Source of the DNA: Escherichia phage vB_EcoM_RZ
Strand: one strand, 5' to 3'
Sequence record: MW598459
DNA: 64,000 nucleotides
Positions 6,468 to 63,410 of the stretch are shown one piece after another (position 1 is the stretch's first letter; each line of letters opens with the position of its first letter). A program made the translations under genes and the position numbers. The notes beneath the pieces were generated by a model. That model made no database searches. It had not been told where the DNA came from and was given only the letters and a program-made list of their open reading frames with translations.

Positions 6468-6671
6468 TTATTCAGAAATAGCCATCAGTTCATCAAAAGT
6501 AAGACACTGTACACTAGGACCTACGCAAAAACGCTTAGTTGAATCATTGAGGTATGTAGCATTAACAGGTTGTAATTCGGTCCCAACTTGGGAAGGAGAA
6601 ATACGAATAAGTTGTTGGCCATTATGCAATAGAAAGCTCTCACCGACTACTACATCTTTAAAAAGTTTCAT
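6468..6671 (-). CDS. Hypothetical protein (67 aa)
   Basis: ORF in minus-strand array. Confidence 0.4.
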   Translation of the reverse strand: MKLFKDVVVGESFLLHNGQQLIRISPSQVGTELQPVNATYLNDSTKRFCVGPSVQCLTFDELMAISE

Positions 6672-6845: not shown

Positions 6846-6956
6846 TCAGAAGTTAAAGAATACGCGTACATGGTCAATCATAAAAACAATTGGGAAAATG
6901 CTCAGGACAACAAACAGTACAAACATGTTCCAAATGGCTTTAAGTAACTTTTTCAT
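6846..6956 (-). CDS. Small hydrophobic peptide (36 aa, not in track)
   Basis: My own translation MKKLLKAIWNMFVLFVVLSIFPIVFMIDHVRVFFNF; preceded by leader box and GGAG. Confidence 0.3.
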   Translation of the reverse strand: MKKLLKAIWNMFVLFVVLSIFPIVFMIDHVRVFFNF

Positions 6957-7101
6957 AATCATCTCCAGTAGTTGATAGGTTCATTATACTACAACCACTG
7001 GAGATGTACACTCTTTTATGCAAGGTTCAATAATAATAAACTAAAACAAACGCAAATTACTGGGATACACAACATCCAGATAAGGCACCACGTTTTGCTA
7101 C

Positions 7102-17762: not shown

Positions 17763-18515
17763 TTAATTAAAAATTTCAACAACCATGGAACGTGGTACAA
17801 CAGTAAATTCACCAGCATGGACAACGTTCAGGAGTTCAACACTCTCTTCAATCCACTGGTCTGTTACCCAACCACAAATGGAACTGTTAAATGGGCGTTT
17901 GATTTGAACTGGTTTACACAGCAAGTCAATAGGGTCACCCAGTTCGCTAACTTCTTCCAGCAGTACAGATTCACGTGGATAAAGGATAGCTTCAAGATTG
18001 TCACCTGATTCATTGACTGCAGTAAATTCAAAGATGCTTTGGTGATTGTGGTACTTAACTGTTTTAACTGTAAATGGAGCAAATCCAAAAATACCTTTCA
18101 GTACCCGCCAACCGGCATTCAATGCATTAGTATTATCAAAATCACCATATCCAACAAGTTGATAGGTTTTGTCAACTTTGATAGGAGCTTCTTCAACTTC
18201 TTTGAAGAGTTCAATCTCAGCTTCATAAACCATAATTTTTTCTACTTCATTTGTATCAAGGCGACGTGCATGCAGAATATATGCTTTATCAAACCAGTTA
18301 CTTTTTACAAAAGTTTCAACAATAAATTCACCTTCACCTAAAGCATCAGTCAGAGTATTATACCCAGAAACCATAGCTGCATTTTGAATAATAGGTTCAA
18401 TCAGTTGATAAGTTTTGTTAATTTCAATAGTCATATTTTGTTTCTCAAGTTTTAATGGTTTAATTGGGCGAACATACATACTTACAACATCAAAGTCAAT
18501 AAATTCTGGTTTCAT
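17763..18515 (-). CDS. Hypothetical protein (250 aa), paralog of 17123-17683
   Basis: Shared C-terminal motif with neighbour. Confidence 0.5.
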   Translation of the reverse strand: MKPEFIDFDVVSMYVRPIKPLKLEKQNMTIEINKTYQLIEPIIQNAAMVSGYNTLTDALGEGEFIVETFVKSNWFDKAYILHARRLDTNEVEKIMVYEAEIELFKEVEEAPIKVDKTYQLVGYGDFDNTNALNAGWRVLKGIFGFAPFTVKTVKYHNHQSIFEFTAVNESGDNLEAILYPRESVLLEEVSELGDPIDLLCKPVQIKRPFNSSICGWVTDQWIEESVELLNVVHAGEFTVVPRSMVVEIFN

Positions 18516-18772
18516 TATGCAACCTTATTGAACATCGCCAGTTGATTAGGTTGTACAACCATAATTTCACGACGACCTTTTGCATTTGACACGTTCAGGT
18601 AGATGCCTTTGTTCATATCAGTTTCTTTATCATATACCGCAATTTTATTGACAGTAAAGATTTTACCACGAATATTTGCAAATGCACATTCAAACGCTTT
18701 AGTCAGACCTGCTTCAGCAGCTTGAAGAGCGGACATTTCATATTGTTGGCCAATTTCAAAAGAAGTAATCAT
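18515..18772 (-). CDS. Hypothetical protein (about 85 aa)
   Basis: ORF trimmed: the first 16 codons of the track ORF translate the conserved leader box and the promoter -10. Confidence 0.45.
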   Translation of the reverse strand: MITSFEIGQQYEMSALQAAEAGLTKAFECAFANIRGKIFTVNKIAVYDKETDMNKGIYLNVSNAKGRREIMVVQPNQLAMFNKVA

Positions 18773-18796
18773 TTTGTTATCCTCATCAGTAGTTGA

Positions 18797-18834
18797 TGAG
18801 ATGATTATGTCTCTTTCCATTGGCCTTGTACACT
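18797..18834 (-). promoter_or_regulatory. T4-type early promoter
   Basis: Minus strand TGTACA (18832-18827), 17 nt, CATAAT (18809-18804), then leader hairpin CTCATCAACTACTGATGAGG. Confidence 0.55.
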
Positions 18835-22276: not shown

Positions 22277-22891
22277 TCAGTAAGAAAGAACGGAAAGATT
22301 CCATAATTTATAGTCTTCCCATCTATAAATGCTCTCAATAGAGTCCACGCGTAGCGTAGTTCCCGCAGGGAACATCATCTCATCTTCATCATTTACTAAT
22401 TGCAAGTTTGAAGAACGAGTTATTTCAGGATATAGTCCGTTGAACTCTTCAGGAGGTGCCGCACAAATCATTTTAAAAATCGCTTCCTGATAATCAAATG
22501 CGAATGGTGCATCATTAATACAGAAAATATTTTTGGTTCCATAGAAGCTAAAGGAAGCAAAGTTACGCGCAACACTGAAATCTTTGGAGAAACTCATTAC
22601 ACGGTCAAACTCAATCGTAGCACCAACACATCCTACGGTTTCAAGATATGCCAAAGTTTTCTTAGAAATCCCGCGATATAACTTACCAGGCACAGCAGAA
22701 GTCAAATTCTTACGAATAATTTTGTTCAAAGTTTCCTGGATAGTGTCTGGCTTATTTTCCATACACTGCCAGAGTGTACTCTGTTCCAACTCAGAGTAAA
22801 TTTCATCAATTTCAATCTGGGTATTTTCACGAAAATATTCACATTTAACTGCATTGATGTACTCTGCTAATTGGTGACTTGCGTACAGCAT
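22277..22891 (-). CDS. modA: ADP-ribosyltransferase, ModA-like
   Basis: R-S-E type motifs: YRGIS, MSFSKDFSVARNF, acidic EDEMMFPAGT; start trimmed past the leader-box translation. Confidence 0.65.
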   Translation of the reverse strand: MLYASHQLAEYINAVKCEYFRENTQIEIDEIYSELEQSTLWQCMENKPDTIQETLNKIIRKNLTSAVPGKLYRGISKKTLAYLETVGCVGATIEFDRVMSFSKDFSVARNFASFSFYGTKNIFCINDAPFAFDYQEAIFKMICAAPPEEFNGLYPEITRSSNLQLVNDEDEMMFPAGTTLRVDSIESIYRWEDYKLWNLSVLSY

Positions 22892-22935
22892 TTTATTATC
22901 CTCATCAGTAGTTGATAGGAACATCTTAACGTGTC

Positions 22936-23496
22936 TTATTGCTCTTGTACACAGTCAAGAACATAATAATCACCAACAAATCCAGCATCAACCACCACGA
23001 ATTTCTGGTCAACTGGAACAAACCATTCAAGCTCAGAATCAATCATGTCCATGTATTCTTCACGTCTTAACGTTGCTGCCTGTTTGGAACCAGAGGCTGT
23101 ATTGAAGAATTCCAGTGGAACATCAAGCGCGATTTTGCGCATCGCATCATGGTAACAAAAAGCTTTTGTATGATTTAATCTTATGATAGTCCTTGACACA
23201 TATTCCATTGCAGCAAAATCCCTGGCAATACCATAGTCTTCTGTAAAGGAGGTTATCCTTCCAAATTCAAAAGGTTGCATTGATTTTTTTGCTTCATCTA
23301 ACAAATCAATCTCTTGTTGGGTAACCCCACGATACAAGACTGTATCAGGTACAGATAACCTTGACTTGATGATTGAGTTAACGTTTGAATGCAAGGTCTT
23401 ATCAACCTTTGATGTGCGGCATTCAAATAATGAAGATATCTCCATTTCACTAAATTTTAACTGGTTGGGTTCGGTATCAGATTTGATGATGTTCAT
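22936..23496 (-). CDS. modB: ADP-ribosyltransferase, ModB-like (tandem paralog)
   Basis: YRGVT, ITSFTEDYGIARDF, SELEWFVP motifs. Confidence 0.65.
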   Translation of the reverse strand: MNIIKSDTEPNQLKFSEMEISSLFECRTSKVDKTLHSNVNSIIKSRLSVPDTVLYRGVTQQEIDLLDEAKKSMQPFEFGRITSFTEDYGIARDFAAMEYVSRTIIRLNHTKAFCYHDAMRKIALDVPLEFFNTASGSKQAATLRREEYMDMIDSELEWFVPVDQKFVVVDAGFVGDYYVLDCVQEQ

Positions 23497-29825: not shown

Positions 29826-30119
29826 TTATTCACCTGTAACCCATTGAACAATTTTGCTATTGTCAAATGAAGCATCGCAATACAGAACATAGTTATACTG
29901 CATAACGTCACCAGAAGTCAATTGGTCAGATACTTCTTTAACCATATCAGGGCGGTCACGTTTAGTAATATTCATGATATCAGCATAAATCTGATGTTCA
30001 ACATCAGTCTGGTCAGCAGTCATAGACCACTCACAAAGGTCTTTATCAAGTCCAGCAGTAACTGGAGCTGTACCACATGATGCTACGGTAAGAATTGCTG
30101 CGATTAATAACTTTTTCAT
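29826..30119 (-). CDS. sp: Spackle periplasmic protein
   Basis: 97 aa with N-terminal signal peptide MKKLLIAAILTVASCG; size and position as T4 sp. Confidence 0.7.
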   Translation of the reverse strand: MKKLLIAAILTVASCGTAPVTAGLDKDLCEWSMTADQTDVEHQIYADIMNITKRDRPDMVKEVSDQLTSGDVMQYNYVLYCDASFDNSKIVQWVTGE

Positions 30120-30179
30120 TTCAATCTCCTCAGTAGTTGATAGGGATAATATACTGCATTACCCCTTTGATGTAAACTG

Positions 30180-30383: not shown

Positions 30384-30701
30384 TTAGATTTCCTCACAAA
30401 ACGCCCAGGCGGCGTGATAAACTGTTGCGCCTTTAGTGTCATTTAAACAAACCACGTCAACAGGTGCAATCACACGATAAAGACGGGGTTCTCCTCCATA
30501 TGAGCGAGATGCTCTTCCTGCATAGATACGCGCCAAACCAATATCTTCAGTAAAAAACACACGCCCTAAATTTTTCTTACGCCCAACTTCTGACAGAACA
30601 CCAGTTGCATCAGGAGGGCAAAGCATATTTTGGATTCCAGCATTAGAGCTTGACCCATGATAATAAACTTTGTATTCTGCCTTGCAATCAATGGTTTTCA
30701 T
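30384..30701 (-). CDS. Hypothetical protein (105 aa) with YHGSS motif
   Basis: ORF preceded by leader box. Confidence 0.45.
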   Translation of the reverse strand: MKTIDCKAEYKVYYHGSSSNAGIQNMLCPPDATGVLSEVGRKKNLGRVFFTEDIGLARIYAGRASRSYGGEPRLYRVIAPVDVVCLNDTKGATVYHAAWAFCEEI

Positions 30702-30739
30702 TTTATTCTCCAGTAGTTGATAGAGTCATTATAACATAA

Positions 30740-30766
30740 GAAAAAGGGGCTGTAAGCCCCTTTATT
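30740..30766 (-). terminator. Rho-independent terminator
   Basis: GGGGC-TGTAA-GCCCC hairpin flanked by A and T runs. Confidence 0.55.
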
Positions 30767-31114: not shown

Positions 31115-31152
31115 TGGAATCATTATGTCCTAAGACAAGGGGCTTGTACACT
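31115..31152 (-). promoter_or_regulatory. T4-type early promoter
   Basis: Minus strand TGTACA, 16 nt, CATAAT, leader GATTCCATACTGAGTTACAC. Confidence 0.5.
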
Positions 31153-31399
31153 ATTTTAATTCATTAATTAAATGAAAATCTTGTGCATTGAAAGTAATGA
31201 AAAAATAATCATTCCCTTCAACTGAAGCATGACAGGCAACACTACACCAACGCCTTGCTCTGTTCAAGGAGCAATCCAAAATTTTAAAAGGCTTCAGACC
31301 AACAATGGCAGCTGTTCTTTTATTATGCTCACAAATATCAGCATACTTTTGGAGAGCTTCTTCAGATTTGAACTGGTAATGCACATTAACTAATAACAT
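31151..31399 (-). CDS. Hypothetical protein (82 aa)
   Basis: ORF preceded by leader hairpin. Confidence 0.45.
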   Translation of the reverse strand: MLLVNVHYQFKSEEALQKYADICEHNKRTAAIVGLKPFKILDCSLNRARRWCSVACHASVEGNDYFFITFNAQDFHLINELK

Positions 31400-31419
31400 T
31401 TTATTATCCTCATCAGTAG

Positions 31420-31462
31420 TTGATGGGATAATAGTACACCCTTTTTATGGTGATGTAAACAC
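31420..31462 (-). promoter_or_regulatory. T4-type early promoter
   Basis: Minus strand GTTTAC (31460-31455), about 17 nt, TACTAT, then CCCATCAACTACTGATGAGGA leader. Confidence 0.5.
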
Positions 31463-35421: not shown

Positions 35422-35664
35422 TCATTTGGTTTCCTTGATGATAATTACTTGTGCGTTTGATTTACGCTCAGCAACGAGTGCCCAGATAAATGCAATAAAC
35501 CATCCGACCATTGTCCAACCTAACAGGAGGTTAACAAAGAAGATTCCGCAATTACTTTTGGTTCCTCGCAGTAGCGCGATAATCCATGGCAGAAAATATG
35601 CCAGTGCAGCCAGGAAGAAAGAACCAGCACCAAGAACAACAGTACCTGCAATTAATGTTTCCAT
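35422..35664 (-). CDS. Pmp3/YqaE-family proteolipid-like membrane protein (80 aa)
   Basis: FLPWIIALLRGTKSNCGIFFVNLLLGWTMVGWFIAFIWAL resembles the YqaE pattern as I recall it; two TM helices. Confidence 0.45.
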   Translation of the reverse strand: METLIAGTVVLGAGSFFLAALAYFLPWIIALLRGTKSNCGIFFVNLLLGWTMVGWFIAFIWALVAERKSNAQVIIIKETK

Positions 35665-35736
35665 TTTAATATCCTTAATTTAATCATCAGTAGTTGATGG
35701 AGTAATCATACGGCAATCCTTTGCCGTTGTAAACAC

Positions 35737-49071: not shown

Positions 49072-49244
49072 AATTTAATTTCCTTAGCTACTGAACAAAA
49101 TACACCACGGTCACAAATCATTTTAATATTAAGGTCAATTATGGTATACCACACATCCAGACTAGATATTTCAGTTACTAGAACAGCTTTGCCGTTGATT
49201 GAATAATACTGGTTGACTTTAATTTCTTTATCTTGGATAGTCAT
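49068..49244 (-). CDS. Hypothetical protein (58 aa, not in track)
   Basis: My own translation MTIQDKEIKVNQYYSINGKAVLVTEISSLDVWYTIIDL...; preceded by leader hairpin and early promoter. Confidence 0.4.
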   Translation of the reverse strand: MTIQDKEIKVNQYYSINGKAVLVTEISSLDVWYTIIDLNIKMICDRGVFCSVAKEIKL

Positions 49245-49276
49245 TATGTTTTCCTCATCATTAGTTGATGGGATAA

Positions 49277-49304
49277 TGATACACCGTTCAAAGGGGCTTG
49301 TACA
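49277..49304 (-). promoter_or_regulatory. T4-type early promoter
   Basis: Minus strand TGTACA (49304-49299), 16 nt, TATCAT, then leader hairpin. Confidence 0.5.
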
Positions 49305-49310
49305 CCCCTT

Positions 49311-59081: not shown

Positions 59082-59114
59082 TTTATTCTCCGTTTGTTTA
59101 TTTGGTAACTCAGT

Positions 59115-59152
59115 ATGGAATCATTATGCATCATGACCATCTGGTTGTACAC
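59115..59152 (-). promoter_or_regulatory. T4-type early promoter
   Basis: Minus strand TGTACA (59151-59146), 17 nt, CATAAT (59128-59123), leader GATTCCATACTGAGTTACC. Confidence 0.55.
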
Positions 59153-63208: not shown

Positions 63209-63348
63209 AGTTCAAATGGAGCTTTCTGCAAGAGTTCAACCACTTCTTCATCAGTGGCACTGTCCATAAAGATTGCATAATCATTAAGATAGATAACAAC
63301 CTCATCACCAGTATTAACTGCATCAATCTTGATATTTTTAATTCTCAT
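63145..63348 (-). CDS. Hypothetical protein (67 aa)
   Basis: ORF preceded by leader box and early promoter. Confidence 0.4.
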   Translation of the reverse strand: MRIKNIKIDAVNTGDEVVIYLNDYAIFMDSATDEEVVELLQKAPFELCEEDATHLSSAIFSLSYVVE

Positions 63349-63369
63349 TGTATTCTCCTCAGTAGTTGA

Positions 63370-63410
63370 TGGGATAATAGTACACCCTTTTTATAAGGAT
63401 GTAAACCCCC
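63370..63410 (-). promoter_or_regulatory. T4-type early promoter
   Basis: Minus strand GTTTAC, about 17 nt, TACTAT, then CCCATCAACTACTGAGGAG leader. Confidence 0.5.

Follow-up and report, generated by a model that had tools for sequence, protein, structure and literature searches.

Results

Genomic setting and features of the locus

The locus lies in a 64,000-nt stretch of the Escherichia phage vB_EcoM_RZ genome (record MW598459), called here the window. This 64-kb window has a G+C content of ~39% and carries nearly all of its genes on the minus strand. A 4-kb probe with dda, dexA and motB matched Escherichia phage MN01, Shigella phage SP18 and their relatives at 95-96% identity; SP18 belongs to Gaprivervirus (Tevenvirinae), and the window phage is T4-like with SP18 as the nearest phage. 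Going by gene order in SP18 and T4, the window extends from upstream of rIIA across the early and replication genes; modA, sp, imm and the counterpart of the ORF at the motB.2 position all belong to the early genes of T4.

Nine cassettes were recognized on the minus strand, each of them containing a predicted early promoter, a copy of a repeated box and a start codon. The copies are named after the position of the A in the ATCAAC of the box (minus strand), which is also the predicted +1.

Cassette 1, 63346..63406 (minus): -35 GTTTAC 63406-63401, -10 TACTAT 63382-63377, predicted +1 63370; box then AGGAGAATACAATG; ATG 63348-63346 of a 67-aa ORF; terminator at 63446-63419 (strong hairpin, UUCG loop and T run) directly upstream of the promoter.
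Cassette 2, 49242..49305 (minus): -35 GTGTAC 49305-49300, -10 TATCAT 49281-49276, predicted +1 49269; variant box ATCAACTAATG, then GAGGAAAACATAATG; ATG 49244-49242 of a 58-aa ORF; stem-loop at 49311-49290 with the -35 inside.
Cassette 3, 35662..35734 (minus): -35 GTTTAC 35734-35729, -10 TATGAT 35710-35705, predicted +1 35698; 34-nt leader with the box and AGGATATTAAAATG; ATG 35664-35662, predicted to drive imm; stem-loop at 35727-35710, from the spacer through the first -10 base.
Cassette 4, 31397..31460 (minus): -35 GTTTAC 31460-31455, -10 TACTAT 31436-31431, predicted +1 31424; box then ATGAGGATAATAAAATG; ATG 31399-31397 of an 82-aa ORF (31151-31399); terminator-like hairpin at 31490-31473 directly upstream of the promoter.
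Cassette 5, 30699..30757 (minus): -35 GCTTAC 30757-30752, -10 TATAAT 30733-30728, predicted +1 30721; box then GAGAATAAAATG; SD/RegB 11-mer GGAGAATAAAA at 30711-30701, including the last box base; ATG 30701-30699 of a 105-aa ORF, followed by dmd; terminator-like hairpin at 30763-30743 with the -35 in its loop.
Cassette 6, 30117..30177 (minus): -35 GTTTAC 30177-30172, -10 TATATT 30153-30148, predicted +1 30141; box then AGGAGATTGAAATG; ATG 30119-30117, predicted to drive sp (spackle, 29826-30119).
Cassette 7, 22889..22952 (minus): -35 GTGTAC 22952-22947, -10 TAAGAT 22928-22923, predicted +1 22916; box 22916-22906, then GAGGATAATAAAATG; ATG 22891-22889, predicted to drive modA (22277-22891).
Cassette 8, the reference copy, 18770..18833 (minus): -35 GTGTAC 18833-18828, -10 CATAAT 18809-18804, predicted +1 18797; box 18797-18787; SD and RegB-like site GAGGATAACAAAA from 18784; ATG 18772-18770 of an 85-aa ORF (18515-18772) between dexA and motB.1, the motB.2 position in T4.
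Cassette 9, 6954..7011 (minus): -35 GTGTAC 7011-7006, -10 TATAAT 6988-6983, predicted +1 6976; spacer ATCTCCAGTGGTTGTAG, an inverted copy of the box; box then GAGATGATTATG; SD GGAG including the last box base; ATG 6956-6954 of a 36-aa hydrophobic ORF.

The box and its copies

The original prediction, made from the sequence of the window, described a box of the form ATCAACTACTG(A/G)(T/G)GAGG at nine minus-strand sites just 5' of start codons, within the 5' leaders of early genes and with the SD of each included. All nine were found where chance would give none, the placement in early-gene leaders and the inclusion of the SD are supported, and the coordinate ranges had been correct to ~10 nt. 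Every copy stands 14-34 nt upstream of an ATG, and these ATGs open sensible ORFs (modA, sp, imm, the ORF at the motB.2 position and five small ORFs). When the 21-mer CTCATCAACTACTGATGAGGA was searched in the window with up to 3 mismatches, five matches were obtained, all on the minus strand, against 0.00 expected. A 17-nt core at the same tolerance gave nine matches against 0.18 expected, namely eight box copies and one chance plus-strand match; copy 30721 was recovered only on relaxing the core to 4 mismatches, which completes the total of nine copies. No box was found in the window without a promoter, the remaining weak matches being chance occurrences in coding sequence. The box is real and strongly non-random. 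At the gathering score no Rfam family matched anywhere in the window, and a full-text literature search with the box sequence returned unrelated primers only.

Early promoters and predicted transcript starts

In all nine copies the box starts 6 nt past the -10 hexamer. The -35 element is GT(T/G)TAC (once GCTTAC) with a gap of 17-18 nt to the -10, which reads TAnnnT in all cases except one CATAAT, and six mostly pyrimidine bases then lead to ATCAACTACTG. Judged by its -35, spacing and -10, each copy is a predicted T4-type early promoter (Pe).

The -10 of early promoters is numbered -12 to -7, and C is favoured at -3 to -1 in RB69, RB49 and 44RR (Nolan 2006). The T4 records hold no annotated promoter features but a single RefSeq note, which names 'Pe133295'; position 133295 is an A, 7 nt past the -10. 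Because of this numbering convention (Nolan 2006, Pe133295) the A of ATCAAC is the predicted +1, and the start geometry, a purine ~7 nt past the -10 that is preceded by pyrimidines at -3 to -1, fits all nine copies; the starts are thus predicted by geometry and convention.

The claim that ORF calling had produced a spurious N-terminal extension was borne out, since IISSTTDEDNKM is the translation of ORF 18515-18820 from an ATG upstream of the box. The longest ORFs 18515-18820 and 22277-22924, together with the SP18 RefSeq entries SP18_gp013 and SP18 modA (NC_014595), begin inside the promoter, their starts (18820 and 22924 in the window) being upstream of the predicted transcript start. The true starts are likely 18772 and 22891, by which the proteins become shorter by 16 and 11 residues, respectively, and the start codons of both ORFs and of the matching SP18 RefSeq entries can be corrected.

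A putative RegB/S1 site in the 3' half of the box

RegB and S1 act on single-stranded GGAGRAYARAA, of which GGAGAAUAAAA is the best version in T4; in that phage GGAU is cut solely at motB.2 and 55.2, where a strict A-rich sequence is needed, and secondary structure shields the RNA from RegB (Uzan and Miller 2010; Durand et al. 2006). It had been remarked in the original prediction that RegB cleaves GGAG in T4 early leaders, and the 3' half of the box does fit the published target GGA(G/U)RAYARAA as a putative site. Copies 31424 and 22916 carry GGAUAAUAAAA, copy 18797 carries GGAUAACAAAA, copy 30721 the T4 optimum GGAGAAUAAAA and copy 63370 GGAGAAUACAA; six of the nine copies match 6 or all 7 of the A-rich positions. 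In T4, GGAUAAUAAAA is the sole GGAU upstream of motB.2, and it stands upstream of 55.2 as well, plus a second GGAU. The deviating copies are 49269 with GGAA, a very poor substrate of T4 RegB, and 30141 and 6976 with poor A-rich tails.

In transcripts modelled from +1, the predicted mean unpaired probability from the SD to the AUG is 0.45-0.75 in eight of the nine copies and 0.32 at 30141, i.e. the putative RegB/S1 site is predicted to be single-stranded. T4 RegB as a tblastn query gave no regB match in the window; the gene is annotated in SP18, which is ~95% identical to the window. The RegB remark is therefore the part of the earlier interpretation that is well supported at the level of sequence; it applies to the box's 3' half and does not depend on a hairpin.

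Additionally, GGA(G/T)AAYAAAATG or a close variant was observed at ten minus-strand start codons, some of them without the box (GGA at 59091, 58507, 30711, 7538, 3663, 31409, 22901, 18782, 63358 and 35674). This string is the T4 RegB/S1 optimum joined to the start codon at a fixed distance.

PeSL-type character of the cassettes

A PeSL combines a stem-loop and an early promoter with an SD and ATG; crossovers have been mapped to the interval from the -10 to the ATG, and T-even analogues use T4 early promoters (Arbiol 2010; Comeau 2014). Elements of the T-even internal-protein locus, cited there after Repoila 1994, are analogous to PeSLs. In the window, stem-loops or terminators stand beside or in the promoter of at least five copies (cassettes 1-5 in the list above), weaker ones belong to copies 30141 and 6976, and no evident stem-loop was found at copies 22916 and 18797 (two of nine). 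The cassettes also finish with an SD and ATG on their 3' side and occur as many conserved copies before small ORFs, which are likewise PeSL traits.

Two of the units (63406-63346 and 31460-31397) are ~90% identical while being 32 kb apart. Furthermore, a unit of ~330 bp with promoter, box and 82-aa ORF (31465-31133) is present in the window phage and in SP18 and absent from the IMG/VR contigs L159, L198 and L216, where the junction falls within the repeated GTGTAC promoter sequence (AAAAAGGGTGTAC / AAATAGTGTAC); L159 has an additional 360 bp beside the sp promoter. The sequences, with one locus compared among relatives, fit cassettes that would have been spread and homogenised by recombination.

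The AAAGGGG...CCCCTTT stem-loops (30763-30743 and 49311-49290, minus strand) hold the -35 of the next promoter in the loop, a 21-nt stretch doubling as terminator-like hairpin and promoter element.

Conservation of the predicted transcript start in T4 and other phages

A 45-nt probe was matched in 603 phage records (from Escherichia, Klebsiella, Shigella, Salmonella, Yersinia and other hosts). In T4, assembled from four pieces, the identical 11-mer or a form with 1-2 changes was seen after about ten early promoters:

T4 (minus strand): box copies at 167050, 166771, 163637 (motA), 73536 (trna.4) and 70660 (e.8).
T4 (minus strand), continued: 65378 (denV), 53907 (nrdC.8), 27044 (imm.1), 20073 (sp) and 6594.

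Among the matches listed by a scan of IMG/VR with a 12-mer plus ATG, most were due to chance and lay in unrelated contigs. A promoter-anchored pattern was used instead; together with local filtering it left 43 distinct promoter-plus-box sequences from T4 and related phages. The sp promoter, the positional orthologue between the window phage and T4, was compared part by part (identical positions):

sp promoter elements: -35 6/6; spacer 6/18; -10 3/6; -6 to -1 2/6.
sp leader and gene: box 10/11; SD 8/8; box plus SD 18/19; first 90 nt of the gene 57/90.

Judging from the sequence of this one orthologous promoter, the leader is the best-conserved non-coding part of the sp unit.

The constancy of +1 to +11 across genera is not accounted for by SD or RegB function. 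These bases hardly vary after early promoters of several T4-like genera, even where spacer, -10 and coding sequence have diverged, as at sp. The 11-nt 5' end might be a functional signal in itself instead of a passenger of promoter and ribosome-binding site, either as a start region tuned to initiation or escape by the Alt/ModA-modified RNA polymerase, or as a 5' tag for S1, RegB, 5'-end-dependent RNases or NAD-cap/ModB RNAylation. All of these act on early transcripts with A at +1. Other early promoters of the window have different conserved leaders, thus the box sequence is not required for early expression. We consider such a signal unlikely.

One of the other leaders forms a second family, gattcc followed by ATACTGAGTTAC(C/A)(A/C)AA..., which was seen after six early promoters (predicted +1 on the minus strand at 59116, 58527, 31115, 22160, 7560 and 3696) and often ends with GGAGAATAAAATG; no promoter-linked copy of this family was found in T4. 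Two further early promoters, near-identical over ~45 nt, lie on the minus strand at 17754-17700 and 6112-6058. Their leader begins with ACTGGAG, and a GGGGTC/GACCCC inverted repeat stands on either side of the -10; the one at 17754-17700 is the motB promoter, and the motB promoter of T4 is similar.

Predicted folding of read-through transcripts

Structure could also matter in RNA entering from upstream. Only such transcripts would contain a 5' arm provided by the -10/discriminator or the spacer, which could mask the box, the SD or the AUG; transcripts of the own promoter lack this arm and would be translated, whereas read-through transcripts would be translationally silenced. The mechanism is established in T4 (e, soc, 49, I-TevI). 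In read-through RNA the unpaired probability from the SD to the AUG falls from 0.75 to 0.40 at copy 49269, from 0.70 to 0.34 at 31424 and from 0.69 to 0.47 at 30721, where the promoter's own -10 and discriminator are predicted to pair with the SD and spacer (TATTATCCC with GAGGATAATA at copy 31424). At 6976 the promoter spacer is the inverted box (-25.5 kcal/mol, z ~-5), and T4 position 6594 shows the same layout. However, this concerns 3-4 of the nine copies and the remainder shows little or no change, at least four cassettes (63370, 31424, 30721 and 49269) have terminator-like hairpins ahead of or overlapping them that would limit read-through, and complementarity between an A/T-rich -10 and an A/T-rich SD spacer can arise by chance. 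As an explanation of the box, read-through discrimination is quite improbable; according to the folding models it may silence those 3-4 copies and is not general.

Owing to the inverted box in the spacer, the -10 is enclosed by an inverted repeat of 13-17 bp at 7011-6960 of the window (minus strand) and at ~6626-6582 of T4 (NC_000866), i.e. the arrangement was seen at two non-orthologous loci in two genera.

The proposed leader hairpin

The central claim of the original prediction was that all these mRNAs share a leader hairpin (CTCATCA / ACTAC / TGATGAG) which half-buries the SD and works as a translational or RNase-processing switch. The exact CTCATCA/TGATGAG complement is real but occurs at 18782-18800 only; in the other copies the 5' side reads CCC, CCT, TCC or TCT and the 3' side a GAGGAG or GGAG variant. 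Similarly, the 3' arm was said to run into the GAGGA ribosome-binding site; overlap with the GAGG of the SD was seen in copy 18797, and in copies 31424, 49269 and 22916 in a bulged alternative fold, but not elsewhere.

The position of the transcript start bears directly on this structure. With +1 predicted at the A, the outer 5' arm (CTC, CCC or CCT at -3 to -1) falls outside the transcript of the adjacent promoter; the 5' arm as a whole spans -3 to +4, hence with the predicted starts the two arms of a hairpin sequestering the ribosome-binding site are not both in the transcript. From +1 the folding check left just a 4-bp AUCA/UGAU stem of ~+0.1 kcal/mol or worse. When -3 to -1 were included, reference copy 18797 formed its 7-bp stem at -7.0 kcal/mol (z -5.6), and the four GATGA-type copies formed a 5-bp stem of -1.9 to -4.0 kcal/mol that stops short of the SD and leaves it outside. 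The four GAGGAG/GGAG copies folded no better than shuffles even with -3 to -1. The perfect 7-bp stem is therefore present in one of nine copies and four of nine are unfolded.

Covariation was not found either. Among the 43 distinct copies 72% of the cells pair, versus 69.5% in shuffles, and two-sided changes were not above controls. Three of the seven pairs are broken in 42-74% of the copies: +1:+13 in 26, -2:+15 in 32 and -3:+16 in 18. A pair between -1 and +14 is possible in 42 of 43 copies (C-G 16, U-G 19, U-A 7); nevertheless this compatibility needs no helix, because it follows from a pyrimidine occupying -1 and G occupying +14. It should be emphasized that RegB is inhibited by structure, which means that the hairpin and the RegB halves of the original prediction oppose each other. 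A shared regulatory hairpin is thus very unlikely. We conclude that it is a by-product: the SD-proximal UGAUG of one sub-family happens to come after the fixed AUCA.

It is extremely improbable that the palindrome serves on the DNA as an operator, bound by a dimeric regulator of early promoters from phage or host. In the reference copy a perfect 7+7 inverted repeat overlaps +1, and inverted boxes flank the -10 at window 6976 and T4 6594, but the palindrome is not conserved, the conserved ATCAACTACTG is asymmetric, the 3' arm follows the SD type, and the reviews consulted describe no such regulator for T4 early promoters. An extended anti-SD enhancer complementary to 16S RNA was also considered; by eye no convincing complementarity was seen, and the conserved part is asymmetric.

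Discussion

In this study we mapped a repeated leader box of a T4-like phage and examined which of its features are common to the copies. The box most probably represents the first 11 nt of early-promoter RNA (AUCAACUACUG), leading into an SD with a putative RegB/S1 site, and the cassettes form a PeSL-like family. The 5' part of the full unit comprises an optional terminator-like stem-loop, an A-rich stretch, GT(T/G)TAC, a 17-18-nt spacer and TAnnnT. Its 3' part consists of a pyrimidine-rich -6 to -1, A(+1)TCAACTACTG, (GAT)GAGG or GGAG, an A-rich spacer and the ATG.

In this model the sigma70 RNA polymerase of the host would initiate at the A directly on infection, and the 14-34-nt leader, being mostly unstructured, would keep the SD open for strong early translation. 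Minutes later RegB (whose gene would lie in another part of the genome, as it does in SP18) and ribosomal protein S1 would cut inside GGAG or GGAU and inactivate the message. The likeness of the copies would have two likely causes: selection on the promoter, the start region and the ribosome-binding site, and cassette spread with homogenisation by recombination, as for PeSL cassettes. A recombining cassette might also be a breakpoint for the gain and loss of small early genes.

The nine boxes are a new set of a known kind of element, in a Gaprivervirus-like genome. The conceptual gain is little, as the early promoters of T4, its RegB sites and the PeSL cassettes were all established before; nevertheless the cassettes supply a map of nine predicted immediate-early transcription units in the window phage, flag probable RegB-controlled genes and mark probable recombination breakpoints for gene shuffling.

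Several known systems can be compared with the cassettes. In T4 e, soc, 49 and I-TevI the 5' arm contains or precedes the promoter and the read-through RNA alone folds, which a minority of the box copies resemble. The T4 cases have long, stable, gene-specific helices and late or middle internal promoters, in contrast to the box copies, whose helix is short, not conserved and missing from most of them.

PeSLs are composites of stem-loop, early promoter, SD and ATG, as the box cassettes are, and both occur in many near-identical copies before small early ORFs and show indels between close relatives. The PeSLs of RB49 and phi1 have near-consensus sigma70 hexamers and G/C stems, whereas the box cassettes have a T4-type promoter and lack an evident stem-loop in two of nine copies. 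Mini-circles are known for PeSLs, in which they arise by recombination between cassettes.

In the RegB/S1 targets of T4 (Durand 2006), as in the box, GGA(G/U) is followed by RAYARAA within early-gene SDs. T4 and the window phage have the 11-mers GGAGAAUAAAA and GGAUAAUAAAA in common, in the latter as putative sites.

The early promoters of T4 (motA, trna.4, sp, imm.1, e.8 and denV) share with the cassettes GTTTAC, the spacing and TAnnnT, likewise a predicted A start 7 nt past the -10 and an identical predicted transcript start, ATCAACTACTG. In most T4 copies caACT precedes the box, ATAC follows it and the leader runs 35-45 nt to GGAGAAUAAAAUG. In the window phage CCC or CCT precedes the box, the SD comes directly after it and the leaders are 14-34 nt long; it is this running of the box straight into the SD that gives rise to the accidental CATCA/TGATG complementarity.
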